From positions 9,869,525 to 9,933,524 of the forward strand of contig OZ316896.1 of assembly GCA_973895155.1 (NCBI GenBank): 64,000 bases of DNA, written 5' to 3'. Positions within the stretch are counted from its first letter, which is position 1, and every line of letters begins with the position of its first letter. The notes below the pieces were generated by a model. That model was not told the DNA's origin and did not search any database. It saw only the letters and a list, made by a program, of their open reading frames with translations. Position numbers and translations under genes: made by a program. The DNA comes from Marsupella aquatica. Lineage: Eukaryota; Plantae; Marchantiophyta. Below, one piece after another: positions 1 through 64,000 of the stretch.

Positions 1-419
1 CATGACACTTGGCCCTACATACGCATTGAAGGGTGGACCTGCATGGTGTTGCCAGTTTGCATGTGGGTCGTTTGAAGTTTGACCTTCATGATTGTTGTAT
101 CCATGGAAAAAGGTTGATGTCCTTCCATCCGTCGGATGCCCTACTGTGCCTGTGCATTCCTCGTCGAAATATGGTCTGCTTGTGTCCACATCATTTGCGA
201 AGTTCGACCAAGGTGACCTTGGTTGGGAAGGCATCACAAAGTCTGTGTCCAGTGATGCATCTTCGTCGTCTTTGATTTGCGATTCATGAATTGTAGGATA
301 CATCTCCAAATCCATTTCATTCTCCCATTCCCCTGCATCAATGATGTCTATATCTGGTGGAATATGAGTCAAGAACTCACTATCCTTATCTAGTGAAACT
401 CCGTGTAGCAATTCATCAG
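1..419 (-). pseudogene. C-terminal acidic tail of the hAT transposase, continuing beyond the gypsy insertion and off the window edge
   Basis: Removing the gypsy element and one ATCAG copy gives a continuous minus-strand frame ...YDTIDDAD|ELLHGVSLDKDSEFLTHIPPDIDIIDAGEW... Confidence 0.75.
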
Positions 420-545
420 TGTAAACGATAAAAATTACACCGGCGATATTATAGTTTTTTTTAGGTTTAGAAGTGTCAACTAGAGGTCAACCAAGAGTAT
501 TTAGGAAGTAGTAAGCAAGGACCAGTGGTTATTCATTTTGTTGAG

Positions 546-1152
546 ATGACAGAAAGGCTGGAAGTAGGGAAGGCGACAATCATCTCGATTAACGGTCGTG
601 TAGGAGTCGAGTTCTGCTATGAAGGCTGCGATGGCCTACTAGCAGATGGCAGAGTATGTGCCTTAAGCACAAGAGCTCGACAGAGAAGGCAAGGGGGGGC
701 GAATATAGGAACCCCTGTTAGTAGGAATCGGTTAGCTCATGAGTGTAAGTCGCTAGGCAAAGGAGTGCCTATGTTCATGTTCACTATTTGGATCAAAGAA
801 GGAAGCTGTCGTGTATGGGATGCGGCGGGGCAACAATTGTTCGGAATGAAGGGCGAAGAGTTCCGCCAACGATTCACCACCGGCGAGGCCAATCGAAGAA
901 CTCTATAGAAAGGTCATGCGGAAGAAATGGAATCTACTGCTAAGACTGGAGAACAGCCACGATCAGCGGATTACATGGCGATTAATCACCGCCAAACAAG
1001 TAATCGTGGCCGGCAAACCGAGCAACCCCAAGGAAGATGACAGAAGTCAGGAGGTCGAGGCACATATGGCAAGATTAACAATCGGAAGTCCGGAAGCTTC
1101 CGCATCAGGCGCAACCGAAGGGAATCGAGGAGGCCGTTGCACAGTTCAGTAA
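546..1152 (+). pseudogene. LTR-encoded RPA1 C-terminal (Rep_fac-A_C)-like OB-fold protein; this copy has a +1 frameshift at ~891
   Basis: ATIISI..FCYEGC..C..EC..MFMFTIxIKEG..VWDAAGQQLFGMKGEEF..EELxRKVMRKKWNLLLR..DQRITW follows the RPA70 DBD-C pattern; the extra A is absent from the 3' LTR. Confidence 0.6.
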
Positions 1153-1477
1153 CCAAGAAGACAGAACTTCTTGACATAGTAATCAGCAGTTCTTGGCTTC
1201 CACTCATCATTCTGGTAGGCATTAGTTAGCGTTCTTGATGAATGAGCAAAGGAGATCAAAGAGGGGGCGCGAGTCGTCCAAACTGTAATCGGCGCACCCC
1301 AAGAAGTAGTAGAGGCCTAGGGCAAAGACGGACGCGAGGCATAGGTATTTAGAGGCTGTGGAGCGCTAGGCGCTCTGTCACTTTTTGCTAGAAGTCTGGG
1401 GCAAGGTAGGGCTCCGCTCACCTTAGGAATGCCAGCAATTTTGTAATAGTGTCCCTACTCAGTTGAGTAGTCTTTGA

Positions 1478-1484
1478 GTATAAA
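1478..1484 (+). promoter_or_regulatory. Candidate LTR TATA box
   Basis: TATAAAG followed by GA-rich sequence in the middle of the LTR; position only, no other support. Confidence 0.35.
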
Positions 1485-2292
1485 GAGAGAGTTTGGAATG
1501 AATGCAACAGAGTGAAGTCCACACTTGAGCAGTGAATGAGAACGTCGAATCAGAGAGAGAGAGAAAGAGAGAAGGAATTTGCCTTATGCAGCAAGTCGTT
1601 ACTCGTTAATTGCAACGATGAATGAATATCGTCTCATTGAGAACCAGAACCTTACGGGCCAGCGCCTCAAGGTATAGGTTGAACAGACAGCTAGTGAGAA
1701 GCGGTGTCTGGTTGGAGATAGTGTGTTTTGAAGGCGATACACTGGTCGTCATACACCTCCATCATACAAGGGTAAACGTGATACTGGGGTACTTGCTTAG
1801 GGTAACCCTGTCATAGTCACCCACACAATCCGGAAATCAATTGCCAGGCAGGCTGATTCAAAGGACAGCCGGACTTAATCAGGTCACGGCTACTAAAAAC
1901 CATGAACACAGACAGCAGTGACGACAAGTCTTGCTCCTTGATTACCTTAAGATCACTGGAACTGTGGATCTGTTCTATCGGCACCCATCTTATTTCCCAT
2001 CAGTTACTATATGAGAACATTCTGATTTGCTTGATCACTTACCGCGAGTGGTGTGGGTTCATTGAGATTGTGTATAGAGAGGGGTTAGTGTTGGCCGAGG
2101 CTGAAGTGCCTAAGAAGTGGAAGACGGAACTCGACATTCAAGAGCACTTGGTCGGATTCACTTACGGGGACCGTGTCGAGATAGAAGGAGTGCCGCCTCT
2201 TGAAGGACGGTTAATCATTTAAACGAGATTACTGAGGAGAAGGTAGTTAAACGGCCATTAATTGCAAGGTCAAAGTTGGCGTTTAACATTTT

Positions 2293-2310
2293 TGGCGACC
2301 ATACTGGGGA
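2293..2310 (+). other. Primer binding site (tRNA-Arg-like)
   Basis: TGGCGACCATACTGGGGA, 4 nt after the 5' LTR; resembles the TGGCGACTCCACTGGGGA PBS of Tat/Ogre-type elements. Confidence 0.7.
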
Positions 2311-3211
2311 ACGCCTCGTTGAGGGTTCCGAAAGAGGAGCAACTGCTACGACCAGCAGTCCAAACCAAGAGAGAAACGCGCAAATCCAAAAAGGCGAACG
2401 GGTGACATGAACTCGCCGAAGGAGTTCTGGACGATGTTCTATTTTGAGAAGGATGTCGAAGCAGCAATCATAGCAACACTGAACGAGAAAGAGCACTCGA
2501 TACTAGCCAGCGGGAGAAGTAGGGCACGAGAAGGCGATGTTATGATAATTGCTTACACCACACCCACACACACAGAGTTGGTACTTCGAGAAGCGCATGG
2601 AGGAACCTGGAACGTGAGGAGGCGAGCAATTCATTTGCAATCCTCTGTTCGGAGCAGCGTTTACAGCAGCAACCATGCCACCAAGTGATCGATTACCTCA
2701 GGGCTACACGCAGTACCGCCTACCCAAGAGAAAGGAGGACCTTAGAAAACTCTTAGAATGGTGTCATTGGAATCGAAATGAGTACCCGGTTGCGATAGCA
2801 TTCCAGATAGGCAGAATCGCTAGGAAATTAAGTTCTAAACTAGAGGAAACCGCAGGAGCTTGCCCAAGATGTATGATGTGGAGTCAACTTGACAGTTTTG
2901 AGTTTTCTATGTTAAACCAGTTATTAACGATGTGCTTTAACGAGGAACTCATGGCTCCAGAAGCCTGCACTCCTAGTTTAAGCGAATAGGAGTCATCTCG
3001 CAGAGGGCATAGCCGCAGTTGAGCAAAGGAGAGAGAGGAACTGATTAACAGAAGTTATAGCATTAGACAAGTAAAGGAGACAGTAGAAGGTCTCCGTTTT
3101 TGTGAAAAGTAACGAGTAATAAGATCTTGACATCACCCTTGTAAAGAAAGACCTGATCGTTGAGTATATTGCTTGAAGGCAGAGAAAAGGCTTTGCTAAC
3201 CCAGAAGATAA

Positions 3212-6200
3212 ATGGGCAAGACGCCCATCAATCCCAACGAAGGGGAAATGGCAGAGGAGTTCGAACCTTTCCAAGAAAGCAGACTCAGACTTGAGGTCAA
3301 AGAACGAATCGAGACTTCAAGGACTCAAGATAAGGTCGAAGAACCCCTGGAAGAAGCCATGGAACGACTTAAAACCCACCAAGGAGCTGGCACTAGTTCG
3401 AGATCGGCTCCTACCAGAAGGGTTAAAATACCCATGTTCAAGGGAGCACCTGATGAAGATGCCGATACCCACTTAGCACGGTTCGAAGAAATGCTCAGAG
3501 CTAACCACGAACAGAACGACACAGCCCGATTAGAGCTGTTTCCCAGCTCATTGGACAAGGAGGCTTTTGTATGGTACACTCAATACCCAGCTGACCATTT
3601 CAAAACTTGGCCTGAGTTTTCAAAAGAATTCTTAGATCATTACAGAAGGGCTAAGGAAGAATCTGATTTGTATAGCATTTTGCAAAACATGACTCAGAAG
3701 AAAGGAGAACCAGTACAGAACTATATTGGACGATTAAAGGTAACAATGAGGCGATTAACTAACAAACCGTCCGACGGGCAACGAATTAGCTGGATGAGAA
3801 AGGCTGTGAAGGGAAGTCTAGTCACAGTGGTAGAACAAAATCCCACTTCTAATGCTGACGAATACGAGAAAAGATTAATACGGCTAGAAGGCATTACTCA
3901 AATGCTTAACCAGGAAAAGAACGAGAGCAGTAAGGATGAAGAGAGGGTTAACCGGAAAACAGAACCTTCTAAGGTAGAAGTCAAGGAAAATCGAGAGCGA
4001 GGCGAGCTTAGTACTCGTAAATTCTGTGAAATACATATGAGGCCTGGACATACTACTCAGGATTGCAACCAGAATCCTTTTAAAAAGAAACCTAGCCTAG
4101 GTGTAAATCAGGTAGGAACAAGCAAACAAGATGGGGATAGGATGGAGAGTAGTCAGGGATATTACAATCCGGATCGTAATGCAAACCGAAGGCCCTATAA
4201 GGATGGCGGTACTAAATACCCACCGATTTGCTATTACTGTCGACTAACTGGCCACATCAGGGGGCCCGATTGTGAATTATGGATGAAGCACATGAAAGAA
4301 AAAGAAGAAATAGCGGGGAAAGCCCCAGCACCTGTGAATACTGTGCAGGTGTCAACATATGTGGTGACAAGATCTCAAGGGCAGCCAGAGAACTCAACCC
4401 AAACCATTTCCCCGGAGACGGAGGGGGGATTCGATTGGAGCCAAATGGATGCAACCACCCGAGAAATGGCGGATGAAATTCGCCACAAACAGCGGAACGA
4501 GACTTTGCCACGACCTGAACGATTAATGCATTCAGAACCTTACGCAGAGACAGATACGGAAATTCTAGAGGAGGGAGTGACGATGGGGGGATTCGATCAA
4601 GAAACGGGACAACTTCCACGAGACGAAGAACCACCGAATAACCCTGCCGAAGCGAACCAGCGAATAGTGGATAAGCTAGTACAACTCATCGCGAAGACCA
4701 GAGTCGACATCACTGTCGAGGAACTGTTCCAGTTAGCACCACAGTGCAAGGAAGCAGTAATGAGACGGTTGGGGGGCAGAATTAGTCCTACCACATTACC
4801 CGGAGTACCACTGTACCAAGCTGGGAAGATTCCCCTAATCGACAAAGGAGCCGTAGTACAGATCAGCGTAAGGGGCATCAAACTAAAGAACGTGTTGCTG
4901 GATGGAGGGTCAGCCGTAAACCTCATGAGTGAGCAGACCTACAGACTGCTAGGCAGAGTCAAACTCTTACCAGCCCCTTTTAATTTAATAATGGCCGATC
5001 AAAGCAGCTGTCACCCACTGGGGTACGTGCCAGACTTACCAATGCTGATTTCAGGCATCAAGTACAATTTAGGAGTGGTAGTTTTGAGAGAAGCAGATTC
5101 CACCCGAGGACAACCCATGTTGTTAGGACGACCTTGGCTAAGACAGGCCAAAGTAAAACAACACTGGGGGGAAGAGAAGGATTATATAAAAATAGAACAC
5201 GGAGGAGAGACTTTCAAGATCAGAACCAAGGCTATCGAGGACGGTGTACCACCTATGGCCAGAGTCTGTACCTTGAACTGGGCAGAGGGGTTGAATGAGG
5301 ATGAAGAAGAGACCTATTTAAAATGCCGTCCAGACTTAGTCCCAATTTCAGATATGGAAATAGTCAAGCTCGACGAGATGCAAGGAATGACCAAAGAAAA
5401 AATGGATCATGATCTACGAAACGATCTGTTTAAACACATAGACCCGCAAGGCATTCAGGAGTGCTCATTAAAGGAGGAAGAAGCACAGACCACCTTGCAG
5501 GATCTAGCAGAGAAGGTGGTGGGATGGAGTGCCACCGAAGAGGAGCACATTCAGAAGGTCGATTTGAGTGACACTGAACGACCACGAGAAGTAAAGATAG
5601 GGAAACACCTTTCCCCCGAGCTCAAAGAGGAACTTGTTACCCTACTCGCCAAATCCCGAGATGTTTTTGCCTGGGATTACACGGAGTTAAAGGGAGTTCC
5701 AGAGTCAATTGGCGTACATCGAATCCGACTCGTACCAGGATCAGTACCGGTGCAGACACAATGATATAGGATGAACCCCAACTATGCGGAAAAGGTAAAA
5801 GAAGAAATCCAAAGGCTCCTTGATGCCAAATTCATTGAACCTGTTAAGCGTTATACGTGGCTATCCCCGATAGTCGTAGTACCTAAGAAAAATGGGAAGT
5901 TAAGAGTCTGCATTGATTTCAGAAAGTTAAACGCAGCGACCATAAAAGACCCTTTTCCGGTACCCTTTCTAGAAGCAGTTCTGGATGTGGTAGCAGGAAA
6001 GTCAGCTTACTCATTTTTAGATGGGTACAACGGGTACAGTCAGGTCCGGTTAGCCACAGAAGCAAGGGAGCTGACCACTTTCATTACGGAATGGGGCGCT
6101 TTCCAGTGTCTCGTATTACCCTTTGGATTATGCAATGGGCCTAGTACATTCCAACGATTAATGATGATGTTATTTCATGAGTATTTGAATTAGTTTATGC

Positions 6201-8340
6201 AAATCTTCCTAGATGACTTCACCATATACGGAGAGGAAGAGCAACATATAGGTCATCTCAGATTATGCCTCTTAGGATGTAGGGAAGGGGGAATCAGCCT
6301 GAACCCTGATAAGTGCACCTTCTTTGTACCATCGGGCAAGATATTAGGACACATAGTTTGTAAACAGGGCTTGTTAGTAGACCCAGATAAGATAAAAATC
6401 ATTAAAGAGATGCCAGTTCCCAATAGTGCAACTCAAGTCAGAAGGTTTCTGGGAAGTGGAGGTTTCTATCGTCATTACATCAAGAGTTACTCCCAAATCA
6501 GTGCCCCGTTGGCACGATTAACGGGTAACCATCAAACGTTCACTTGGGACGACGACTGTCAGAAAGCGTTTGAAGAAATCAAGGACCGGTTGTGCCATGC
6601 ACCCATACTCAAGGAGCCGGATTGGAAGAGGGAGTTCCATCTACATACAGATGCTTCTCTCGTAGCGGTGGGGGCAGTGTTAGCACAGAAGGGAGAACAA
6701 GGTATCGATTTACCAGTATACTATGCCAGTAGACTGTTAAACGTGCATGAAAGGAACTACACCACGACTGAGAGGAAAGCATTAGCCATGATATTTGCAG
6801 TAAAGAAATTTAGGCATTATTTACTTGGGAATCGATTCATATTCTATGTAGATCATAATGCCTTGGTCAACTTAGTAAACAAACCACAGCTATCGGGCCG
6901 AATTGCAAGATGGATTTTGTTATTAGCTGAGTTTGATTACACCATCATTTATAAACCCGGGAAAACCCATGTCATACCCGATTATTTGAGTAGACTCGAA
7001 TCAGGAGAGACAGGCAAGGAAGAAGATGATCAATTAGCGGATATGGAGCTATTTCAAGACGCCAAGGAAAGGCATCCTGTAAATCTAGTGACCTTGGATG
7101 ACGAACCAGCATTAGAAAGGTATTTACGCACAGCGGTATTCCCCGAGGGGTTGTCCAGTAAGGAAAGGAAGGTCTACGCCTATAAGGCAAGACCCTACAC
7201 CTTGATCAACCACGTGCTTTACTACCAGGGGCCCGATGACATACTACGTAGAGTAGTTCCGGAGGAAGAACGGCCAGAAGCCTTAATCGCGGCACATGAA
7301 GGACTAGGAGGGGAACATTTCGGCACCGAGATCACCCTGAGGAAGATTCTTCAGCAAGGACGTTGGTGGGCAACTATCCATAAAGACACTCGGGAGTTTG
7401 TAAAAACGTGCGACTTGTGTCAGCGTACAAGACCTGTAAAGGAAAACATGGAGTTCAGGCCTATAATCGCCCCTTATATTTTTCAGAAATGGGGACTAGA
7501 TTTCATAGGACCCATCACTCCATCTTCCAGATATAGTCAGAACCAGTATATTTTAGTAGCAACAGAGTATACCACAAAATGGGTGGAAGCAGTCGCAACT
7601 CGGGAGAACACTGCCCGAGTAATAGCCAAGTTCTTGTACCAGAACATCATCACGAGATATGGATTACCAGGTGAGCTAGTGAGCGATCAAGGTTCACATT
7701 TTTTGAACAAGGTTATCCAGGAACTGACGGATAATTACCATATAAGCCATCGGTTTTCGACTCCCTATTACCCTCAGTGTAACGGGCAAGCAGAGTCAAC
7801 AAACAAAGTCTTACTCAACATTTTACGGAAAGTGGTTAACGAACAACAAAACGATTGGGACGTTCAGCTGCCAGCGGCAGTATGGGCATTCCGCACGGCA
7901 TATAAGGTAACCACGGGCCACACCCCTTTTCAATTAATGTTTGGAGTTGAGGCCCGTATGCCGACAGACTACGAATTACCTAGTTTGCAAATCGCAGTGA
8001 GATACGACATAAATCAGAACCCGTGTTTAACTAGATGGTTAAAAGCACTATTGGAGGTTACCAAAACCCGGAGAAGGGCCGAAGAGCGATTAGAGTATGT
8101 ACAAGGACAACGCAAGCGACGAATAGACGATCAACGGGAGGTAACCACGTTCACGGAAGGGGAATTAGTACTATGGTGCCGAAAGCGAGCACGAATATAA
8201 AAAGGAAAGTTGAGACTTAAATGGGAAGGACCCTTTACCGTCCTCAAGGCGTGGGGAAACAGAACCTTCAAAATTACCAGCCAGGATGGGAGCGAGCAAC
8301 AGCGGGTGAACGGGAATAAGATGAAGTCGTACCACGTAAG
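3212..8340 (+). pseudogene. Gypsy gag-pol polyprotein with in-frame stops at 5762, 6191 and 8198
   Basis: Gag with two Zn-knuckle-like motifs (CEIH..GH..C, CYYC..GH..C), protease LLDGGS, RT FLDDF, RNase H TDAS..ERNY, integrase GLDF..SDQG..AES, and WEGPF; ORFs 3212/5771/6197/8210 share one frame. Confidence 0.95.
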
Positions 8341-11300
8341 GAATGACGTGTACTTACGAGAAGTAGAGGATACGTTTAACGACTACCCAGGGGAAAGCGA
8401 AGTCGGCAACGACTCCGATACGGTACCGGCGCTCAACGAGGACGACGACAGCTATCAACTGCCGACAGCACCACTTAACGAGAATCAAACGGATGGAGAA
8501 GGGTACGAGCTACCCACTAGAATGGTAGCCTGTATCAGCGTGACCCCCGATCAAGCATCTATGGAACCCACCGGAGGGGCACTCACCGCCAAGAACACGG
8601 AGCGACCCTTAGCACACGCAAAGAAGCTAGTCGTGACCACCACACGTGACACACTACGACGAGAAGAAAGCACAAATGAACAAGGACGAGAACTAACGAT
8701 CAAGGGGTACCCGTTAGAGGATTACGTGAACAGAACCATTCCATCAAACGAACCAACGGAATCAGGTCAAATCAAGTCAGTGGTTCTAGCGGAGGAGGAC
8801 CTATCTGAAATCTTTCAGATCCACGATTGGAAGCACAAATTACCCAAAGGCCAGGAAGAGAGGAGGAGAAGGTTTCCTTATAGAGTAGTAATCGTAGGAT
8901 GTACACACGGACCCTTTTCCACATGGATTGCAGATCGGATTTTGATAGGACCCAACTCGATACCCTGTATTGAGGACTACTCCACGGGAAAATTACATGT
9001 TATACTAGAAGTTCAGGATACACTAGAATCCAAAGGGCGAGCACCATCAGCCGCAAAAGAACTGTTAAACCAAAAACCCTATTTCCGACTGGCAAGGAGA
9101 TTACGAGAGAACCCCGAGTGGAGTGGCTATCAGCGCGAGGTGAAATTTGAATGGTCGAGGGTCGGTAATAGGCATTACACATTACCGGTGGGCATGAAGA
9201 CTTTGAAGTTGAAACGATCAAACGAGTTTGAGGACGATAAACCGAGGAAGCGCGTTACTATCAGCGAACTACTCGAAACCCCGGCGATGGAGGAGACACC
9301 CACCCCCATGCACACAGAGGGAGAAGGGCCGACAACAGCAGAAGGCATGGAGCTGGAAGTTTCCGAGTCAGCGGAAAGGGAAAGGAGCAACCCCGAAGAT
9401 GATCAAGAGATCGTGAGTCAGGGACCTTCAGCGGCTGACCATCTCTCGGAAACTACAGCCAAAAGGGAAGGGCAGGGGCCCGCAGAGGAGCCAACCCTAG
9501 AGACACAAACTGAATCAGTAATCGAGGCACCAACGGAGCAAGCAGCCGAGCAGACAGAAGAACAACAGGGAAACCAGCTGAACGAACTTCAACGAGAAGG
9601 GAGACGAAAGCTGACCATGGCAGAATTGTTAGCCAACCAGGATCCCACGGAAGCAATCACGGCGGTCACCACAGCGATAATTGAGGAAACGACTCCTTCT
9701 AGGACCAAGAGGAACCGCAAGGGGACAGCCAAAACGATTAAACTTGAGCCGCCAACGATGAGGGAGGTGCGATCCGTAAGGGGAAAGAGCAAAATAGTCG
9801 AATACGAGGAGAAAGAATCGGAAGAATCCGACAGTGAAGAAGAGGAGGAACCAGTAGAAGAAGCAAAAAGTAGGACCAGGAAGGCGACACGCGCCGCAAA
9901 GGCGAGTCCAGGGGAAACAAGTCATGTTTTGAAATTTGAGAGAATGGAGCCACAGATATTGCAAACTATGCACGGACAAGCACACAGGAACTTTCTACAG
10001 TCACAAGGATTGGAGAAATTCGTGAAACTAAAGTGGAATCAAACCACGAAGCTACAAGCAGAGGACTACAGCGAGTTCATCACCACTTGGAAACCCACCG
10101 AAAATCAGGGAATATGTAGGGGCCAAGTCATTAAGATGAATCCTCGGAAGCTTCAGGAGCTTTTCAAACTGCCAAAGCAAGGAGCGGAGATCAAGAAACG
10201 GATGGGGAAAACTTGGCAACCTGCCACATTTCCACAACACAAGGACGTAGACGACAACAGGGGCTATCCGACCAAGCATTGCACGAATGAGAAAATCAAG
10301 TAAAGGCTCGAATTTGTAACCCATGCATTACATTGGAAGAGGCCCAGATCAGAATATCCTCGATTTATGATTAAAATTGTAGAGGAGGGAGACGGGAAGC
10401 AAAAGGATTGGTCGGCCTTTTTCCACGAAGGGTTCCATGCAGCCATCAAGCGAGCTAAACGATTAATCAGCAGTAAAAGCAACCTGCCAGTAGAGATCGA
10501 GTCGCATCTCCAATTGTTAATCAAGAGTCAGCTTACAGGGGAAGACGGGGGAAAAACGGAATCAACAACTACCATTTACCAACCAACGAGGAGTGAGGGA
10601 GCCAAGAAGCAGAAGGGCACCCTGCCAGAAGAGGAAGCAGCCAACAAAGAGCAAGAGGGGGACGCATCACCAGTGCGCACCACCAGGAGGAAAGAAACCA
10701 ATCCAACACCGACCAAGAAGGAGTCAGAATCAGAAGGTCAGGAACCAGCGGAGGAAGACAAAATGCGAGCAAAAACCAAGGCTTATAGGACAGCGCCCAT
10801 TGATGACGATGACCTCAAGTACGCCCTCTCAACCATAAAAGAAGGTGATGAACAACAATTACGTGAGAAGCTGGGGATCGAAGTATTGAAAGAGCAGATC
10901 AGCACAGTGCAAAAAGATAGCATCTTTACAGTCATGATCGGACAAATCGCCAGTCAATTAGCCATTTATCAGGGAATAACGAGTTCGCTAGTACACTTGG
11001 AGTGGAACAAGCGAGAAGAAGAAATCGCCGAGGACTTAGCCGGGAAGGAGGAGGCAGATAAATGGGCAGTGGAGGCCGAGGAGACCATCAAGGAGTTACT
11101 AAATCGTAACAAAGAGCTAATAGCAGATAAGGATCGACTGACAACCATAGGAAGAGGCTGGAGGCATGAGGAGGCAGCCACGCAGGAATTGGCTGATTAC
11201 CTAGGAATAGAAGGGTTACGTCCAGGGGGACTAACGACAAATTACCAGGAGGTTGTCACGGCCATCGGAGCAGCCATAGCCACAGTCAAATCAGATAGCC

Positions 11301-11858
11301 AAAGGATCAATTCACAGCTAAGGGAGGATAACGAGAAACTCAAGGAAATAGAAGAATTGCAATCGCAACTCAAGGAGGAAGCAGCAAAGCAACGCAGAAC
11401 AGCCGGTGAATGGGCAATGGAACGCCAGAGGGTGGAGGAATTGAAGAAAAAGCTCCAGGGTCTGGAAACCCAACTCCAGCAAACCACCGTAGTCAAAGGG
11501 ACCCCACGGAGGATCTGAACAAACAAGCCCTACTGGAGGAGCAACTGGGGAAGCTTGGACGAAAACACTATGAAGTATCGGAGAGTTGGAGAATCACAGA
11601 AGACGACTATAAGCGGAAAATTGCTGAGTTAGAAGTAGCTGTGAAGCTACAGGGCACTGGAGAGGAGAGTATCACTGAACAGACCAAGGAACTCGAGCAG
11701 TTGAGGACAGAGAACGATTAGCTTTCGCAAGAACTGGAAGATAAGGAACGATCAATTTTGGATTTAAAATCTGAAGTGAGGAAGCTGAAGGCACAGAGTA
11801 GAGTTCCGATAACTCCAACCAGGACGACCAATGTTAGCAAGGGTAGAGGAGTGAAGTA
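8341..11858 (+). pseudogene. Extra C-terminal region in frame with pol: acidic linker, plant-mobile-domain/Transposase_32-like segment, coiled coil
   Basis: Same frame as pol up to ~11500, then a frameshift; GLEKFVKLKW..EFITTW..GQVIKMNP..LFKLPKQG motif; E/K/L heptad-rich tail. Confidence 0.65.
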
Positions 11859-11920
11859 GACCGGTGACTACTTGTCCCCAACGTATACCAAGCATAACGG
11901 ATATCGAGGACGAATCCGTA

Positions 11921-11936
11921 GGTAAGCAAAGGAGAA
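11921..11936 (+). other. Polypurine tract
   Basis: GGTAAGCAAAGGAGAA directly before the 3' LTR. Confidence 0.6.
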
Positions 11937-13805
11937 TGTAAACGATAAAAATTACACCGGCGATATTATAGTTTTTTTTTAGGTTTAGAAGTGTCAACTA
12001 GAGGTCAACCAAGAGTATTTAGGAAGTAGTAAGCAAGGACCAGTGGTTATTCATTTTGTTGAGATGACAGAAAGGCTGGAAGTAGGGGAGGCGACGATCA
12101 TCTCGATTAACGGTCGTGTAGGAGTCGAGTTCTGCTATGAAGGCTGCGATGGCCTACTAGTAGATGGCAGAGTATGTGCCTTAGGCACAAGAGCTCGATA
12201 GAGAAGGCAAGGGGGGGCGAATATAGGAACCCCCGTTAGCAGGAATCGGTTAGCTCATGAGTGTAAGTCGCTAGGCGAAGGAGTGCCTATGTTCATGTTC
12301 ACTATTCAGATCAAAGAAGGAAGCTGTCGTGTATGGGATGCGGCGGGGCAACAATTGTTCGGAATGAAGGGCGAAGAGTTCCGCCAACGATTCACCACCG
12401 GCGAGGCCATCGAAGAACTCTGTAGAAAGGTCATGCGGAAGAAATGGAATCTACTGCTAAGACGGGAGAACAACCACGATCAGCGGATTACGTGGCGATT
12501 AATCACCGCCGAACAAGTAATCGTGGCCGGCAAACCGAGCAACCCCAAGGAAGATGACAGAAGTCAGGAGGTCAAGGCACATATGGCAAGATTAACAATC
12601 GGAAGTCCGGAAGCTTCCGCATCAGGCGCAACCGAAGGGAATCGAGGAGGCCGTTGCACAGTTCAGTAACCAGGAAGACAGAACTTCTTGACATAGTAAT
12701 CAGCAGTTCTTGGCTTCCACTCATCATTCTGGTAGGCATTAGTTAGCGTTCTTGATGAATGAGCAAAGGAGATCAAAGAGGGGGCACGAGTCGTCCAAAC
12801 TGTAATCGGCGCACCCCAAGAAGTAGTAGAGGCCTCGGGCAAAGACGGACGCGAGGCATAGGTATTTAGAGGCTATGGAGCGCTAGGCGCTCTGTCACTT
12901 TTTGCTAGAAGTCTGGGGCAAGGTAGGGCTCCGCTCACCTTAGGAATGCCAGCAATTTTGTAATAGTGTCCCTACTCAGTTGAGTAGTCTTTGAGTATAA
13001 AGAGAGAGTTTGGAATGAATGCAACAGAGTGAAGTCCGCACTTGAGCAGTGAATGAGAACGTCGAATCAGAGAGAGAGAGAAAGAGAGAAGGAATTTGCC
13101 TTATGCAGCAAGTCGTTACTCGTTAATTGCAACGATGAATGAATATCGTCTCATTGAGAACCAGAACCTTACGGGCCAGCGCCTCAAGGTATAGGTTGAA
13201 CAGACAGCTAGTGAGAAGCGGTGTCTGGTTGGAGATAGTGTGTTTTGAAGGCGATACACTGGTCGTCATACACCTCCATCATACAAGGGTAAACGTGATA
13301 CTGGGGTACTTGCTTAGGGTAACCCTGTCATAGTCACCCACACAATCCGGAAATCAATTGCCAGGCAGGCTGATTCAAAGGACAGCCGGACTTAATCAGG
13401 TCACGGCTACTAAAAACCATGAACGCAGACAGCAGTGACGACAAGTCTTGCTCCTTGATTACCTTAAGATCACTGGAACTGTGGATCTGTTCTATCGGCA
13501 CCCATCTTATTTCCCGTCAGTTACTATATGAGAAGATTCCGATTTGCTTGATCACTTACCGCGAGTGGTGTGGGTTCATTGAGATTGTGTATAGAGAGGG
13601 GTTAGTGTTGGCCGAGGGTGAAGTGCCTAAGAAGTGGAAGACGGAACTCGACATTCAAGAGCACTTGGTCGGATTCACTTATGAGGACTGTGTCGAGATA
13701 GAAGGAGTGCCGCCTCTCGAAGGACGGTTAATCGTTTAAACGAGATTACTGAGGAGAAGGTAGTTAAACGGCCATTAATCGCAAGGTCGAAGTTGGCGTT
13801 TAACA
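11937..13805 (+). repeat. 3' LTR (1,869 bp)
   Basis: Direct repeat of 420-2288, followed by the ATCAG TSD. Confidence 0.97.
12064..12669 (+). pseudogene. Second copy of the LTR-encoded RPA1-C-like ORF (201 codons), with one TAG at 12199
   Basis: ATG at 12064 to TAA at 12669 in one frame; the 5' LTR has CAG where this copy has TAG. Confidence 0.6.
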
Positions 13806-13810
13806 ATCAG

Positions 13811-16104
13811 CATCATCAATTGTATCATAATCTTTGACATCTTCTTCACCAAGAGCCGCACGTGTTGCATCGTACTCTTCATTGCCGCACAACTCCATGG
13901 AGACAGGTCTAGGTCCATCATTTGTTCTTCTTCTTTGGTCATACCATTCATATATAAACGTATGCGGGTTTCGAACATTTGTTAGTCCTTTGTCTACCCT
14001 CATGTTTGTAAATACAAACACCAAATCTTTTGCTCGATCATTTGTCAATCAATTGCGACTTTTGGAATGTATAAATCCATACGAACTCCAGTTTTGCTCG
14101 CAAGCTGATGCGCACACTTTTTGGTGTAAGATTCTTCGCGTCAGGATTCTCAAATGTTTATAATCTGCACCATATGCATGCCACCACTCTGCTGGACTGA
14201 CGTTACCTATACTTGATTGGGCGGCTCCCATCGCTACTGATGTATTGGGATTTTTTTTTGGGGCATCAATGGCTTGACTGTGGATGGCAGAAATAAGTTC
14301 TCTGACATTGCGATCATGGTTGATCCCCTCCTTTACCTATTGTTCTGAATATCTAGCAATGTATTCACTGAAACCCCTATAGAGTTCTGGATCTCCAGCA
14401 ACATCTATGTCCTCATCAAAAAACATTTGGGGATTTAGATATGCTGCCGCTAGCATAAAATCAGTGGTAAGAGATTTTTCGATCCAAATACACTTTTAGT
14501 ATCTTTGGTTTCAATACCTCTGTTACCACTGGACAATCCTCCATGCTTGTTTTCAAAACATCCATCCCTCTTTTCAAACTCCAATACAACCAACCTGATT
14601 GTGGAGAATCACCATCAAAGTCTCGCAACATCCTCACCAACGGAGTAAAGAATTTAACTGTATCCTTCACTTCAACCCAAAATGTATCTTGCTGTATCCA
14701 CATTTTAAGTTCGTCTGCCTTTCCCCTTGTCATGTGTCCAACTGATTTTGGTCGCAATGGAAGTCTATCACGATAAGACTGCCAATTATCATCAATGACC
14801 ATCTGTTGTAAAGCTCCTCTTAGCTCCAATGCTCTTTGTGCCATTAGGAAATTGGTCGCAAATCTAGTTGCATTTGGATTCAACAGTTTTTTGTCAGGAG
14901 ATTTTCTTGCAAATATTGCAGAAAGCTTTTGCGATGATGAAACTGCTTTTACTATCCACCTCAAGCGTTTAAAAATCTTTTGGAATGGATTCTGTCCAGC
15001 ATCATCTAGCACTACACGCTTGTGACCACACATATCCTCTAGAAGCAAATTAAACACGTGGGCAGCACACCAGCTTCAAGTGACATGAGGATACTTTTTC
15101 ATGACTACCTCACAACCTGCTACGCGATTTGCGGGTGCTCCATCAGTTACGATTTGAATAATATGATCTGCACCAATATCCTCAATGTATTTCGACCACA
15201 TCTCGCCAAGATATTTCCCATCTTTCTTGTCAGCTTGCGCAGCATTCCAACTATCCAAGAAGAAGTCACCTTTAGAAGTCAACAACATGACATTCATCAA
15301 AGGTTCTCTTCAGACGTTTTCCCATCCATTTGAAGAAAGAGAATACCCATAAGGTTTTGCCTCCTTTAAAGTTTGCGTCATGTCCTTTGTGAGATCCTCC
15401 TTATTGTCTTCCAATAATTTCAATCGCAAACTTCGCATCGTAGGTAGAGAGTAACCATTGACAATCCGTTTTGAAGTCTCTTTGACTGCTTCTCAAAAAA
15501 AATGATTATTTGAAACATTGAATGGAATACCACTGGTGTAGAAAGCTTTCGCCCAAAGCTTATCCAAATTTGTTCTATTTGGAATTTGATAGGCATCCAT
15601 AATTGGGTTAGGAAGATTTACTGACCTATCTCCTTCCCTCACATGTGTATCATCCATGTCAACATAGTTTGACCCTCGTGTGGATGCTTGCGAATATGAA
15701 CTTCCAATGCTTGGCCTACGGCCTCTCACATCCCGCAAGATATGAGTTCCATCCCTTCGTTTGTACTTTAAGGTCAGTGGAACCTTTATCACATTGTACA
15801 TTATGTTGATGGCATCCAAATCGACAACACCATAGAGTTGCATGCAAGGGGGCGCATCCCCTTTTTGGATGTTTCCCATCAAATGCGCCTTTGCTCGTGT
15901 TGCATGATGAGTAAAGTATGTTAAACAATACTTGCATCTTCGATAGATACGATTGACATCATGACATGTTGAAGGCGCATCACATTGTTCAAAATATCTC
16001 CACACTGCAGATTGTTTTGAAGGGTGTTCTTGCACACGAGTTGGACCAGGCCTGGGAGTAGTGGAATGATATCCAGTTTCATGCGAATCCTCTTCATCGG
16101 ACAT
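13811..16104 (-). pseudogene. hAT transposase (BED zinc finger, DUF659-type core, hAT dimerisation domain), multiply disrupted
   Basis: VWRYF..CKYC..AHL BED finger; IVTDGA; NATRFATNF; WWHAYG..SACEQNWSSYGFIHSKSRNxL..DLVFVFTN; catalytic DGW reads NGW; several stops and frameshifts. Confidence 0.93.
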
Positions 16105-16677
16105 TGTTACGACTCTCAATGGTAAAAAAATAAAAGGGTTGATTCTTTTGATTTTGTGGATATAACAAATATAGTACAATGGGTTACTTTGCTGAATTAT
16201 CGCAGATTGGGCCTAAGCTCAAAGCATGCGTAGGAAAGTTTCCCAAATTCTTATATTTGTCAAGATCCCTACTTCAACCTATGTTATGTAATATCTATAA
16301 CTTCACAGTCGTTTATCTTTCAAGTGAACATATGTACGAGAAATCGTGATACCCATATGAAATATCATAGACCAAGCCAAAGCTCTAAGCATATGCACAT
16401 GGGTATCTCTTTACTTGCAAGTAGTTCACTTTCAAACAAAGCAATGATGCAAAGTTGTTAAGGCGATATAAGGAACTTCTCGTACGAATTATCGCAGACC
16501 GAGCCAAGCTCAAAGCATGCGCGTACAAGAGTTCCAATGTATCCCTCCGATCTCTCCCTAATGCTAAACCACAAGAGAGAGAAACACAATGAGACTTTGG
16601 ATTAGTGAAATAGATTAGTGACTCCTACTTATACTAAACTATCTACTTCCTACCTCCTAAAGTTCTTAATCTTCTCT

Positions 16678-17298
16678 CCTAACCCTAATCGCGCCTCCCC
16701 TAACCCTAATCTCTCCCCCCTAACCCTAATCCTGCCCCTAACTCTTCCCCGGCTGCCAATTCCCGAGCCCCGTCCCCGAACCCCGCATCCCGTTCTCCGA
16801 ACCCCCTACCCGAACCCCCTACCCCATTCCCCGAACCCCGTTCCCCGCATCCCCAAACACCCTACCCGAACCCCCTTCCCCGAAACCCTTACCCCGTTCC
16901 CCGAACCCCGTTCCCCGCATCCCCGAACCCCCTACCCGAACCCCGTTCCCCGAACCCCCTACCCCGTTCCCCGCATCCCCGAACCCCGCCCCCCTTCAAC
17001 CCGTAACCTCTTCCCCGAACCCCGCCCCCTCTTCCCCTCTTCCCCGAATCCCGCCCCCCGAAGCCCGCCCCCCGTCCCCGCTTCCCCGAATCCCGTCCCC
17101 CGGTCCCCCCTTACCCCGGCCGGCCCCTTGTCCCCGGCTACCGGGAAGGGTCCGGGCAGGGTCCGGGGAGGGTTCGGGGGGGAGGGTCCGGGAAGGGCCC
17201 GGGAGTCCGGGTTCGGGTCAGGGGGAGTTCGGGTTCGGGTCCGGGGTGTTCGGGAGGAGTTTGCGAAAGGTCCGGGGAAGTCGGGGTTCGTTCGGGAG
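16678..17298. repeat. Subterminal repeat array of the hAT element: CCCCGAACCC-type units followed by their reverse complements, preceded by AACCCTAA motifs
   Basis: C-rich units ~16760-17130 and G-rich GGGTTCGGG units ~17140-17298, upstream of the transposase start. Confidence 0.7.
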
Positions 17299-18007
17299 AA
17301 TCTTCACGAATATGCGTCAAATTGAGTGTTTTCGGGCCGTCATTTGAGGATTTGACGTGCCCGGCAAGGCGTCAAGGTGCCCGTCAGATTAAACCGGGTT
17401 CAATGCAGAGTTGAGACATGATGACAGCTCTGTCATCATTTCTCAGCTCCCCGTGGATTTAGGGCATCCCCGGGTAATGGCATCCCCGGGTAATGTCGAG
17501 ATAAAGCTTGGGATCAATCAATGGCAAGAAGAGTATTTGTGACAGAATGCTCTGTCCTCTCTCTCTGATCGCTTGCTATCTTTTCCTTAGATTTTTAGTT
17601 GACAGTCGACTTATGTAAGTCTGTCCACTCACCACGTGTAGTTGCCTTAAGAGTTCTGTGTTTTTCCGTTTAGCAGCTTCTTTTGAATTCTAAATGTCTC
17701 GTTAGACTGTGGTGATGAGGGGATTTACGTTAAATCTTTCCCTTCCCACGAAGTTTTGTATGAAGAACATCCTTGTGCTTTTCTTCACGTCTCTTGTCTA
17801 CGAGAATACAAATTTCCTCAATTAAAGGAGACAAAATGATGTCGATCTGTACGGAGTTCCTGCTCAATCAATTGATTTGTGTAAATTTTTGTTTTCCTTT
17901 GTTCGCTCCATTGGGATGGATCACAAGTTATGGGCCGTGTACCATTGCTTGTTTTTAAGCTCGCACATCTTCACATTCTAGTTTACTATTTTTTATTCCC
18001 CTGAAGT

Positions 18008-36311: not shown

Positions 36312-36636
36312 TGTGAAAGTTTACCTTTCTGTTTCGGTGCTCGTCAAATCGTGTCTATCCGTTCCAGGTGTCGGTTAGTCTACATTTACATACAGTAGTA
36401 TCAGGCTTACTGTAAGCCACATTGCTTTCGTCGTTTTCTGTGCCACATGGCTTCCGCGGGACAACGGTGTGATAAGGACTGAGGTCCATCCCCGCGCCAC
36501 TATGTACTCTGGCTCTCGCCCTCTTTTGAGGCATAATGAAATCTGCACTCCAGGAAGTTTTCAAAATCGTGTTCGATGGCTTTGAGTGTTTTTTTCCTGT
36601 CTCGTGTTCAAGCTCTGCGCATCTAACGAGTCGACA
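36312..36636 (+). repeat. Copia 5' LTR
   Basis: TGTGAAAG...GTCGACA; one mismatch to the 3' LTR seen by eye. Confidence 0.96.
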
Positions 36637-36648
36637 GGTTATGGGCCT
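36637..36648 (+). other. PBS of the half-tRNAi-Met type
   Basis: GGTTATGGGCCT directly after the LTR, like the GGTTATGGGCCC site of Drosophila copia. Confidence 0.8.
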
Positions 36649-36734
36649 TAATTCTATAGACTGCGCTTGCACTACACTCTGACTGAGATACTCAGCTCCG
36701 TTCTTTCTTTATACAGATTTTCGTCAATTTTACC

Positions 36735-39700
36735 ATGTCGAATCCTTTTCGCGATTCTACACACTCAATTCCAAAGCTGGAAGGAGGAGTCAATTATGAC
36801 TCGTGGAAAATGCTTGTCTCCGCCGGTCTTCAATCATCGGGCTCGTGGAAGTTTATTGATGGAACTGCTACACCGCCTGTGAAGGAAACTGATGAGAAGG
36901 ATTACCACTTCACGGCTAGGCTTGAAGCTTACGATTCTCAAGCAGCGTTAGCCCGGATGATTATCCTGTCTTCTTGTAAGCCTCATGTCCAGACCAGTTT
37001 GGCACATTTGCTTACAGCGAAAGCATGTTGGGAGAAGCTGCAACAGCAATTTCAACCACGAGGAATCGTACAGAAACATGACTATTGGCGACATTTCGTC
37101 AAATTACAGTATCAAGGTGAGGAGATGGAAGCATTTTCTGGTCGATATTTGGATGCAGTCGATCGTTGTATCACTGCGGGAATCACCATTGATCCAGAGG
37201 TTCAGATTATGCAGTTCTTGTTCATTCTTGATCCACATCCGAATTTTCAGCACTGGGCTGCAAACATTCGCAACCAGATGCGTCGAGATCCATTGCACAC
37301 ACCATCTTTAGATCTGGTTCTTCAGGAGGCCAAGGATGAGTGGTGGAGTCAACAAGAACGAGAACAACCAACGCTTCAATTAAACGTGTCTCGATTGCAG
37401 ACACAAGCTCGGTCCTCACAGTCACGTTCTTCTGTACCCACTCCGAAGTGTTCGTTTTGCCACTTCTCCAATCACAAAGATGACATGTGTTTTTATAAAC
37501 ATGTCCATCTTCGTCGGCCTGGATGGCAACCGAATACCATCGTAATGCAACGGATTCAAGAACGATTGAAAGGAACAATGCAAGTTCAAGCATCTACCTC
37601 TAGTCAACCAACTAGATCGACTTCTCCGCTTCTTGATGTTTTTACCTTCGCTCAATACTCGCATCAAGTTCACTCGGATGCTACAGATCATCTAACACCA
37701 GCAACGTGGATTTCTGATTCGGGCGCTAACCACCATTTCTGTAACAATCGTGATACTTTGGAGAACTACGTGGATGATCCACTCACGATCAACACTGGAG
37801 CGGGCTCAGCAGTCTCACCAGGTTACGGAGATGTTCGTCTTTCACTTGCTCGTTCTGACGAGTCTGTTCGTCCTGTTCATTTGCATACAGTCCGATACCT
37901 GCCAACTAGCTTGCTTAATACCATGTCAGAACATTTGCTAGAACTACGCGGTGTATACTGGCATGGATGGCAGTCTAAATTTGTTATACAAAATAGTGGG
38001 GAGGAATTTGCTACAGCACGCAAAATAGATGGTCTAAAAGTACTTACGGTTCGACCCGATGTGTCGCCAGTGTGTCAAATAGCCGCTGCTGATAGTAGAT
38101 CTCTCACTCTTAATATCGTCCATAGGCGATTCGCACATCTACACCTAGATGGACTGAAACATCTAATTAAACAGGAAGGGATGGTTGTCACCGATATTAC
38201 CAATCCTGACCCGTGTACAGTTTGCGCCATAGCCAAGTCTAAGCGTATCATTTGCAGGGAGTCTCATGCTCCAGTCTCGAGACCCTTTGAGCGCATACAC
38301 ATGGATCTCGTAGGACCAATTGCCACTCAGGGGTTAGGATCCAAGAGATATTTCCTTCTAATTATGGATGACTTCACACGTTTTCGGTGGGTCTCCTCTC
38401 TTAACAATAAGACTCAGGTTCTTGAGGTCATTCGTCACTTCTTTACTGCCATTGACAATCAGTACTCATCTAAGATCTCAGAGTGTTATTGTGACAACGG
38501 CACTGAATTTGGCAGCCGTGTTTGCCAGCAATTTTTGGCTGACAAAGGTTGTCGGATGGTTCATTCTGCGCCATATCATCACAGTCAGAATGGCATTGTG
38601 GAACGTGAAAATGGCATCATTACTGAGAAAGCTCGGGCGATGCTGCTCGACTCTAAGCTTCCCACTTATTTGTGGCCTGAAGCTGTGGCTGCTGCAGTGT
38701 ACATCACGAATCGATCTCCCACGAGTGCGAATAATGATTTTGCTGCTCCAATTCTTTGTCTCCGTTCATCGCTTGGCTTACAATACAGATCAAATCTTAG
38801 CCACTTCCGTGTGTTTGGCGCCACCGCTCATGTTCATATTCCACCTGAGAAGCGTCCACGCGGTGCCAAGTTTGAGCCTCGAGCACAAACCGGTTATCTT
38901 GTAGGATATGCTGATGGTATCAATTACAGGGTCTGGTTTCCAAAGACAGATGCGATAGCAATCTCAGCTTATGTTTCATTTGATGAAACACCGAGAACTG
39001 CTCCGATCATGCCAGCTCAACTCAATATCCCCTTTGAGCTTCCAGAATTGGATTATGGTACAAGCGCTACGCCTACTCCTCTGCAGCTTGTCATTTCAAA
39101 TGACATCTCTCCAGCTTATGGTCTTCCTCATTCTTCTATCCCAGAAGAGGCGTTCACCATGCTACCTTCACCTTCGACAGTTTCTCTGACTTCCAACGAA
39201 GATACGGCAACTACTCCGGACGTTCCTGAGGTGGCCATCATGGCTCCCCCTCTTGGGACTCCATCTCACGAAGATCTTCAGGCTGATATTGATGCTGCAG
39301 TCGCTGGTACACCACCAATTCTTAGACGATCTGCTCGAGCTACCAAGGGCGTACCACCTGCTCGCTATGATTCTACGGGACAGACATTTGCTCTTTTGTC
39401 TCATATCCCTTCGTCGCTTTTGTATTCATACTCTGCGGCATTGTTTTCTTCAGGAACTCACCAGGTACCTTCCACGCATAAAGAAGCAATGAATCGACCC
39501 GATGCGGATCAATGGAAGACAGCTGAACAAACTGAGCTCACACAGCTTAAAAAGCTCCAAGTCGCTCAACTTTTTCCTTTACCTGCTGGAGCTCGTTTGT
39601 TACCCTCTCGTTGGGTATACTCACATAAACGAACCTCAGGTCTATACAAGGCCAGATTCGTTGCCAGGGGCGACAAGCAGCGTCCTGGTGAAGATTTTCA

Positions 39701-41147
39701 GGAAACATTTGCCTCGGTGGTCAGGCCAGAAACATTTCGAACCATCATGGCACTGCTGACCCTTCACAATCTACACGCTAAATCGTTTGATGTGGTTACA
39801 GCTTTCTTGTATGCACTAATGGCAGGCCAGATACCAATTTATGTGCGTCCTCCGCCAGGATATGAGGAATATGACGAAGCAAGTCGATTACTTGTTTGGC
39901 TTCTTCTAAAAGCCCTTTATGGTCTTTGACAGTCTCCTCGACTGTGGTACCTTGAACTTACACAATTCTTGGCTGCCTATGATTTTTTACCGCTTCCGGC
40001 TGATCCTTGTGTACTCAAAAATCCAGCAGGGGATTTACTCGTCTTGTGGGTGGACGATATAATCACCATTGCAAAAGAGATGCAGGCTATTGACCGCATG
40101 GAAGCCATACTCACATCTAAGTATGAGCTACGCGAGATGGGGGAGCTCACTGAATATCTTGGTCTACTTATTATCCGGGATCGAGTACAAGGCACACTCT
40201 ACCTTTCTCAGCGCACCTACTCCGAAAAAATTCTGAGTCGTTTTCACATGGAAGATTGTGTTGCTTTACAAGCTCCATCAACCGGTGCTGATCGTTTGCT
40301 TCCCAATCCAAGCCAAGCAACAGCTGACCAACGTCAATTATATCAAGCTTTCGTAGGTTCACTCATGTACCTCTCTGTCTGGACCCGGCCCGATATTGCT
40401 GAACGTTGTTCCAGATTGGGACAATTCGCGCATAATCCCGGTGCAGAGCATCAAAGCAACATTCGTCATGTTCTTGCGTACCTTAAAGGCACTCTCGATC
40501 TGGGAATTACCTTTTCTAGCTCTGCCACTTATGGGATTGAGGTCCACTCGTTGAATTTTCAAGGATACACTGATGCATCTTTTGCTGACAATTCTATGAA
40601 TCGACACTCAACATCGGGATATCTTTTCAAACTCGCGAATGGGGCTGTGAGCTAGAAATCTCGTAAACAGCCGGTCCTGGCTACAAGTTCTACCGAGGCT
40701 GAGTATATTGCATACTCAATCGCTGCTAAAGAAGCAGTATGGCTTCGAAATCTGCTATTACAGCTGGGGCATTCTTCTCCTGATATTCAGAAAGTCATCA
40801 TCTACGGCGATAACAAACCGGCGCTAGCACTTACGATTAATCCTGAACACCACAGCCGCACTAAGCACATCGAAGTTCAGTGGCACTACGTGAGGGAGCA
40901 AGTCAAGAAGGGCATCGTTTCACTGTCTTACCTTCCTACAGGCGAGATGCCTGCTGACGGCCTCACCAAACCTTTGGCTGGTGCTTCTTTCTTGCGTTTT
41001 GTTAAGCTTCTTGGGCTCCAGTCTCTTCCGCTGGAAGTCCGTGTCCCATCCGGGGGGTGTCCACGTCCTTCGTTGAATTTCATTTCGCCAGGAGGAACCA
41101 AACGCAAACGGCCTTTCTCTGATTTGAGCGAGCCGGGGGGTGTGTGA
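36735..41147 (+). pseudogene. Copia gag-pol polyprotein with stops at 39927 and 40653
   Basis: CSFC..H..C knuckle, WISDSGA protease, HRRFAH..CTVC, HMDL..CDNG..VER integrase, YKARFVARG, WVDD, YTDASF, TKHI. Confidence 0.95.
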
Positions 41148-41467
41148 AAGTTTACCTTTCTGTTTCGGTGCTCGTCAAATCGTGTCTATCCGTTCCAGGT
41201 GTCGGTTAGTCTACATTTACATACAGTAGTATCAGGCTTACTGTAAGCCACATTGCTTTCGTCGTTTTCTGTGCCACATGGCTTCCGCGGGACAACGGTG
41301 TGATAAGGACTGAGGTCCATCCCCGCGCCACTATGTACTCTGGCTCTCGCCCTCTTTTGAGGCATAATGAAATCTGCACTCCAGGAAGTTTTCAAAATCG
41401 TGTTCGATGGCTTTGAGTGTTTTTTTCCTGTCTCGTGTTCAAGCTCTACGCATCTAACGAGTCGACA
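41143..41467 (+). repeat. Copia 3' LTR, preceded by PPT GAGCGAGCCGGGGGGTG
   Basis: Direct repeat of 36312-36636. Confidence 0.96.
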
Positions 41468-51942: not shown

Positions 51943-52015
51943 CAGGGGAGAGATCCAGGAGTTTATGCACACTTTAGTGTCATTGGCCTTTGGCCAGGAG
52001 ATGCTAATTTCACAG

Positions 52016-60100: not shown

Positions 60101-60236
60101 ACAATTGGCCAACATTACGGGAGAGATATATCCAGTTCGCATCCATTATGACCGCCTCAAGAAATACTATATGGACGAAGATGAAGTTGTTCGCGAGGAC
60201 GCTTCACAATTAAGTGGGGAGCTATGTGATGCCTAG
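57165..60236 (+). pseudogene. Gypsy pol (RT, RNase H, integrase) with a stop at 57492
   Basis: MPFGLCNAP, FIDDF, ERNYS, GGHF..CDPC, GIDY..SDRG..TER, WLGPF. Confidence 0.95.
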
Positions 60237-63975: not shown

Positions 63976-64000
63976 CGGAGCAAGGGCGCCGTTCCTTTTA

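Follow-up and report, generated by a model that had tools for sequence, protein, structure and literature searches.

An RPA70-C-like OB-fold gene predicted within the LTRs of a liverwort Ty3/gypsy retrotransposon, and its possible role in RNA export

Introduction

The retroviral genes HIV nef and MMTV sag lie in or overlap an LTR, and their products act on immunity; Cassandra carries a non-coding 5S RNA within its LTR. Rev, the RNA export protein of HIV, has a helical fold.

Accessory proteins of LTR elements have also been described outside the retroviruses. The Cer1 element of C. elegans produces its accessory protein CERV from a spliced RNA, and CERV combines a Cys loop containing an essential Arg with a candidate export signal (available parts of PMC10309623 and PMC12786077). 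In plants, Helitrons encode proteins with RPA-type domains (available part of PMC9033089), and Ty3/gypsy elements have extra ORFs, including Athila ORF-1, the plant mobile domain, Transposase_28 and env-like ORFs, which are described as lying in the internal region (available part of PMC7264820). The export of plant LTR retrotransposon RNA has not been studied directly, according to the available part of a 2025 review (PMC12786077). A survey of extra ORFs counted those of at least 250 codons only, and its domain table contains neither an RPA nor an OB domain in the part available (PMC6317226). In the literature searched, which lay outside subscription journals and repeat databases, we found no paper describing an LTR-borne gene of the RPA or OB-fold type; the available parts of PMC12964672 and PMC12885004 held nothing relevant to such an LTR gene.

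Here we describe an ORF in both LTRs of a Ty3/gypsy element from the liverwort Marsupella aquatica, located at the start of the 64,000-nucleotide stretch of DNA that we analysed as a whole (the window). We consider the ORF very probably a functional RPA70-C-like accessory gene, and we discuss what its product might do for the element.

Results

Structure and decay of the host element

The region 420–13805 is a complete Ty3/gypsy element, whose Pfam domains follow the gypsy order of gag, RT, RNase H and integrase (Table 1). It is flanked by a 5-base target duplication, ATCAG, at 415–419 and 13806–13810, and a purine tract precedes the 3′ LTR start at 11937. The primer-binding-site-like sequence behind the 5′ LTR presumably resembles Arg-type sites. 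The paired TG...CA LTRs, target duplication, primer site, purine tract and domain order are all those of a Ty3/gypsy LTR retrotransposon. As to subclass, the 5-base duplication ATCAG differs from the 4-base NCGN duplication given for Phygy in the available part of PMC6317226, and with regard to the Athila/Tat (OTA) lineages, of which Tat has an additional RNase H, Pfam returned an RT-type RNase H only. An Rfam search of positions 1–14500 gave no matches.

Table 1. Features of the element and of the ORF carried by its LTRs
Feature	Position	Strand	Remarks
5′ LTR	420..2288	+	1869 nt, TG...CA, 98% to 3′ LTR
OB-fold ORF, 5′ LTR copy	546..1152	+	frameshift, one extra base at ~891
Likely TATA box	1479..1484	+	sole TATAAA in LTR; also in loose end of sister subfamily
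Primer-binding-site-like sequence	2293..2310	+	TGGCGACC starts at 2293, after 5′ LTR
gag-protease-RT-RNase H-integrase with long 3′ extension, one frame	3212..11518	+	Pfam and reading frames
Candidate short intron, GT...AG	11922..11988	+	61 or 67 nt; spans purine tract and 3′ LTR start
3′ LTR	11937..13805	+	TG...CA
OB-fold ORF, 3′ LTR copy	12064..12669	+	201 codons; in-frame stop at 12199-12201 (codon 46)
Predicted zinc ribbon with Arg-rich loop	12145..12264	+	ligands C28, C38, H65, C67, from alignment
Tail motif with leucine-rich nuclear export signal spacing	12571..12600	+	residues 170-179; 5′ copy at 1054-1083

The long gag-pol frame is interrupted by only four in-frame stops, at 5762, 6191, 8198 and 10301, and contains Pfam matches to Retrotrans_gag, RVT_1, RT_RNaseH, Integrase_H2C2 and rve. 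A protease motif, without a Pfam match, and a CCHC knuckle in Gag were read by eye. Downstream of integrase the frame continues for 1100 codons, comprising an acidic linker, an unnamed domain and a coiled coil. A second gypsy-like element occupies 57027–64000 on the plus strand and runs off the window, with no OB ORF found near it; its post-integrase domain shares 25% identity over 184 residues with that of the first element (E 1e-19) and has no Pfam match.

The copy at 420–13805 is decayed, since its LTRs differ by 33 substitutions (29 transitions and 4 transversions; 1.8%), in addition to 2 indels, and pol contains stops. At 17 or more of the LTR–LTR differences among those listed, public contigs share the letter of the 3′ LTR, so that the visible decay lies mostly in the 5′ LTR, although differences of the opposite kind may be under-represented among those listed.

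Two further sets of open frames were noted in the element. A 121-codon frame at 1857–2222 and 13374–13739 (plus strand), likely the U5 part of both LTRs, has no Pfam match and is probably not a gene, because the sister subfamily described below skips parts of it. Between the primer site and gag, two overlapping plus-strand frames of 121 and 123 codons (2323–2989), also without a Pfam match, are possibly a broken upstream ORF.

Elsewhere in the window, a copia-like element at 36312–41442 (plus strand) has 300-base repeats that are 100% identical, which makes it very young, yet its long frame contains stops. Long inverted repeats at 45130–46158 and 50644–51947 surround minus-strand frames, one of which (46289–46930) matches an N6/N4 DNA methylase (E 6e-7), and enclose a 79-base tandem array at 47843–48471; the region 45130–51947 is possibly a DNA transposon carrying a methyltransferase. 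Minus-strand frames at 14049–17350 resemble a hAT-type transposase by eye, without a Pfam match, beside a C-rich 7-base repeat array at 16760–17100.

An ORF broken differently in the two LTRs

Each LTR contains a copy of the same ORF. The original prediction had reported a different single lesion in each copy, and both are seen: an extra base in the 5′ copy and a stop codon in the 3′ copy. Wherever the ORF is disrupted in one LTR, the other copy reads open. Reverse transcription normally leaves both LTRs identical at insertion, and if that was so here, the ORF was open when the element inserted, since the copies are broken at different places.

The earlier claim of an intact ORF at insertion also agrees with related public contigs, which are free of these breaks. 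The base at 891 is absent from contigs in all four public runs (from 2 studies, one of which is possibly the window's own source). At position 681, which corresponds to the site of the 3′ stop, the main contigs of 3 runs match the open 5′ copy, with their 6, 6 and 3 differences all placed elsewhere. Among 2000 simulated LTR-like sequences, a frame of at least 201 codons arose in 3. The ORF likely sits in U3, judging from the sole TATAAA of the LTR, at 1479, which lies downstream of it. Its location in the LTR is shown for two subfamilies, that of the element at 420–13805 and one sister subfamily.

Purifying selection in a sister subfamily

A sister-subfamily contig from public runs spans 552–1155 with 115 differences and rejoins the LTR sequence at 1322. 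Other contigs of this subfamily connect downstream pieces of the LTR, skipping stretches that can no longer be aligned. Compared with 12261–12538, 40 of 278 bases differ in the sister-subfamily contig, without a single gap, and third codon positions account for 22 of the 32 listed differences (p 5e-5). The resulting dN/dS is 0.14, and it stays within 0.09–0.24 whatever the 8 unlisted differences are. The signal is weaker in the zinc-loop stretch (617–725), where third positions make up 8 of 15 differences (p 0.09), and some indels occur among the listed differences in the tail region. The two LTRs of the window, which have decayed since insertion, show the opposite tendency, with 11 changing codon differences against 4 silent ones.

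The original prediction had named dN/dS as a check on selection; the value of about 0.14 is not near 1 and indicates purifying selection in the sister subfamily. On this substitution pattern, we regard the OB-fold ORF as a real, selected protein-coding gene inside a plant retrotransposon LTR.

An uncatalogued protein family in liverworts

A phmmer search of 1.84 billion representatives with the ORF protein returned 73 matches, 26 of them at E≤1e-10. Five were discarded as false (4 WD40 and 1 SprB), leaving 68 true relatives at 28–55% identity. No Pfam family accounts for the OB domain in these 68 proteins and, by sequence comparison, the ORF protein belongs to an uncatalogued family without a Pfam model. 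Other routes to relatives or templates gave little: searches with the single ORF protein found none among 121 candidates from a word-indexed protein database and no match in the PDB, the family profile matched two GTPases in the PDB by chance, a degenerate DNA pattern of the ORF hit 0 loci in metagenome contigs and 0 in viral contigs, and the ESM Atlas held no usable match to a natural relative.

All named relatives are from liverworts, 9 from Calypogeia fissa and 29 from Riccia sorocarpa (22 of the 30 clusters looked up were without a name). The 29 Riccia proteins sit on 7 long contigs. A tree built from 47 cores gathers the 11 Riccia rows into a single group and spreads the Calypogeia proteins over several positions. 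Such scattered near-copies, together with several deep lineages per genome, would suit transposons. Many database relatives are short or miss conserved residues. Our alignment of the family comprised 61 rows, after omission of 7 long proteins of the Riccia type and of a further one with 295 residues, and the complete metal-site pattern described below is present in 38 of the 61.

In many near-identical gene models of Riccia sorocarpa (P0028, P0030, P0037, P0055, P0096 and P0099–P0108), the OB domain is preceded by a coiled coil, a RING finger and, at the N-terminus, an unnamed domain; the junction often falls exactly at the start Met of the OB domain. These models probably represent a transposon present in many copies that has been annotated as host genes. 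Their upstream domain gave no HMM match to the 3′ extension of the element at 420–13805, and hhalign returned a probability of 2% and a score of 20 for the pair, with 60 shuffles scoring up to 19. In a search that scored 7998 candidates, 12 longer relatives carry coiled coil and RING names in the place of DBD-A and DBD-B.

Predicted fold and metal site

An AlphaFold2 model built from the 61-row alignment reached a mean pLDDT of 84.9. Across blocks of residues 1–150 the pLDDT was 91–98, apart from one block at 80, and the tail stood at about 50. A prediction from the single sequence was unusable (pLDDT 37).

Using Foldseek, we obtained five matches to the model at E≤0.001, all of them eukaryotic RPA chains; at the same threshold, viral models gave none. 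VIA-align ranked residues 458–616 of RPA70 first in both runs. Among 48,161 representative solved chains, the top of the list consists of human, fungal and yeast RPA70-C and Teb1 OB-C (Z 12.4 to 9.7), with bacterial SSB and PriB trailing at Z <8. Fungal RPA70 superimposes with Z 12.0 and an rmsd of 3.7 over 130 residues, and Teb1 OB-C with Z 11.3 and an rmsd of 2.4 over 117 residues. Residues 458–599 of human RPA70 correspond to model residues 1–154. VIA-align stretches model residues 155–165, from the low-confidence tail, onto the C-terminal helix of RPA70, with an rmsd of 6–8. At the sequence level, Rep_fac-A_C (PF08646) appears more often than any other family among the weak Pfam matches, in 4 of 61 members and with a best E of 0.024; the window protein gave no match to it at E≤1 and the 73 phmmer matches none at E≤0.01.

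The model contains a predicted zinc ribbon with the pattern C-x9-C-x26-H-x-C. Its ligands are conserved in 87% (C28), 95% (C38), 98% (H65) and 87% (C67) of the rows that have a residue at the position, and the loop is rich in arginine, with a mean of 4.6 Arg across 83 family loops. The original prediction had assigned the protein to the RPA70 DBD-C pattern and had called for an OB-fold search. The search of the predicted model duly recovered RPA70 DBD-C, and the fold part of the assignment stands, through Foldseek, VIA-align and the weak Rep_fac-A_C matches; the finger part does not, as C28, C38, H65 and C67 are not all cysteine. We thus predict an OB fold of the RPA70-C kind that stands alone and includes a zinc ribbon. 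The protein is not an RPA1, because identity is 10–15%, it lacks the other OB domains and its metal ligands differ. The fold alone shows no function.

A recurrent motif in the C-terminal tail

Beyond the last strand, the tails of the relatives cannot be aligned with one another. Within them, hydrophobic residues at spacing 0, 4, 7, 9 occur in 40 of the 50 proteins whose tail has at least 25 residues, against 6.2 expected from shuffles. Patterns of this kind, which are typical of export signals, are frequently false. Counted by cluster, with grouping at 55% core identity and with ancestry shared among clusters, the spacing is present in 9 of 12 and missing from 3 (against an expected 0.95; P 4e-9, rising to 3e-8 once 8 patterns are taken into account); the pattern was noticed in the same data on which these values were calculated. 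As controls, helix-only spacings occurred in 3–4 of 12 clusters, a related export-signal spacing in 6 of 12, and three off-patterns in 0–1 of 12. The same pattern is also found inside the folded core of 5 of the 12 representatives.

The tail motif lies 26–97 residues beyond the conserved core Trp, in the low-confidence region of the model, and acidic residues outnumber basic ones ahead of it in 8 of 9 cases. It fits the CRM1 export-signal consensus in the available part of PMC10674744. Given the spacing, the tail likely ends in a nuclear export signal; alternatively, the motif may be a drifted RPA70 partner-binding helix.

Splice-site-like sequences upstream of the 3′ copy

About 10.5 kb of genomic RNA separate the inferred start from the ORF, which would therefore need a message of its own. 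A candidate for producing one is a short GT...AG intron at the boundary between the internal region and the 3′ LTR. On the donor side, AG/GTAAG at 11920 is the sole instance in 1510–13200. On the acceptor side, the two most T-rich of the 449 YAG sites in the same interval fall at 11981–11988, just inside the 3′ LTR, and the ATG of the 3′ ORF copy is the first one after them. This ranking of splice sites is post hoc, and the purine tract is naturally AG-rich. The candidate intron is 70% A+T, within the top 1% of the element, and contains the sole ATG between 11859 and the ORF start, which splicing would remove. As read from the frames, splicing would leave the upstream ORF unfused to the OB-fold ORF.

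In 8 of 28 extended relatives, Gln precedes the start Met, compared with 41 of 543 internal Met residues, as a CAG/ATG junction would give; these cases come from gene models and represent about two clades. The 3′ copy of the ORF would be the one carried by genomic or spliced RNA.

Discussion

Given these features, we hypothesize that the ORF protein exports RNA as a Rev-like adaptor derived from an RPA domain, a reading whose chance we put slightly short of even. The domain would likely derive from a host or Helitron RPA1 whose other domains were lost. The 3′ copy would be read from a spliced or subgenomic RNA, with an acceptor at the start of U3 and the ORF ATG coming first. The OB cleft and the Arg-rich zinc loop could then bind the element's single-stranded RNA, and the tail motif could dock on exportin 1 (CRM1), so that unspliced genomic RNA would get to the cytoplasm for Gag-Pol translation and packaging. 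Being in U3, the gene would be copied to both ends at each reverse transcription. In combination, the proposed spliced message, the basic Cys/His domain for binding nucleic acid and the tail with its export-signal-like motif match the logic of Rev and CERV. In its widest form, the hypothesis is that liverwort Ty3/gypsy elements have their own Rev, a host RPA70 domain placed in U3, spliced across the polypurine tract, rebuilt as an RNA-binding CRM1 adaptor and kept across distant liverwort lineages; this composite claim we hold with somewhat less confidence.

The closest solved folds weigh against RNA export. RPA70-C, Teb1 OB-C, CTC1 and archaeal RPA all come from proteins that bind ssDNA, not RNA, which favours an RPA-like ssDNA binder that would coat minus-strand cDNA or integration gaps, in or outside the particle. 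The basic core (24 K+R vs 19 D+E) is in keeping with such a role, as is the use of RPA by Helitrons for their ssDNA intermediates (available part of PMC9033089). However, the protein lacks DBD-A and DBD-B, which the available part of PMC4731521 names as the main domains for binding ssDNA; Gag already has a CCHC knuckle, and the conserved tail motif would be left unexplained. We consider this ssDNA role unlikely, and favour RNA export over ssDNA protection because of the export-signal-like tail and the sequence resembling splice sites that lies upstream of the 3′ copy.

If the tail corresponds instead to the trimerisation helix of RPA70, the protein could act on host RPA32/RPA14 or on other repair factors as a decoy or tether, diverting host RPA or directing integration towards sites of replication or repair. 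The predicted fold matches the RPA trimerisation core, in RPA70 the helix comes directly after the domain (chain ranges extend to 616), and an amphipathic helix fits part of the motif, as the helix-only controls show. Against this stand the variable distance between motif and core, the position of the last two hydrophobic residues two apart, which is disfavoured on a continuous helix face, the low confidence of the tail in the model, and the start of the model at RPA70 residue 458. The decoy or tether therefore strikes us as quite unlikely.

An export signal by itself implies shuttling only, and the protein might be another kind of shuttling regulator, such as an anti-silencing or transcription factor, or it might remove a host restriction protein from the nucleus in the manner of Nef. 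The RING and coiled coil upstream of the Riccia domain would suit action on host proteins, but Pfam finds no RING in the window's element and none of 74 proteins has a known silencing-related domain; we see little chance of this regulator, on a par with the decoy. Passive, functionless LTR cargo derived from a captured host fragment could account for the broken copies here and the many short or incomplete relatives, but it is already largely refuted and very improbable, given the gap-free dN/dS comparison at about 0.14, while non-coding LTR parts fail to align in the sister subfamily, and given motifs retained across lineages at 28–55% identity.

The family offers a small, testable candidate for an RNA export adaptor, consisting of a single soluble domain, a tail motif and a predicted splice. 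Were the hypothesis true, Rev-like function would have arisen a further time, out of an RPA domain. Should the export idea fail, there would still be a selected gene in a plant retrotransposon LTR and a family lacking a Pfam model. Surveys of internal ORFs of at least 250 codons would miss such a gene, and the findings would mark dozens of liverwort 'hypothetical proteins' as probable transposon genes.

Comparison with known systems

The closest relatives in structure are DBD-C of RPA70/RPA1 and OB-C of Tetrahymena Teb1, with which the ORF protein shares the predicted OB fold, the zinc-ribbon insertion and a helix (Z 11–12). It differs from RPA70 in its low sequence identity, below the Pfam cut-off, and in standing alone: the ORF starts at the C-domain, and DBD-F, DBD-A and DBD-B are missing. 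In addition, it has a flexible tail with an export-signal-like motif. The metal site, with its single histidine, contrasts with the C4, C5 or C6 fingers described in the available part of PMC4731521, and its first spacing resembles the C-X8-C of plant RPA1A/C.

Among transposons, the Helitron-encoded RPA is likewise an RPA-type domain in a plant element. Here, however, the carrier is an LTR retrotransposon, not a Helitron with the gene beside RepHel, and only the C-domain has been kept. The extra ORFs of other plant Ty3/gypsy elements are a precedent for accessory coding beyond gag-pol, in their case in the internal region. Like HIV nef, MMTV sag and the 5S RNA of Cassandra, the gene lies in an LTR and is duplicated by reverse transcription, although the products are unrelated.

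In functional design, a counterpart would be CERV, which the ORF protein resembles, as far as sequence tells, in its Arg-rich Cys/His loop and its export-signal pattern. The predicted fold differs from the H, M and G domains of CERV and, in contrast to CERV and the retroviral Rev, Rex and Rem, the ORF gene lies wholly within the LTR.
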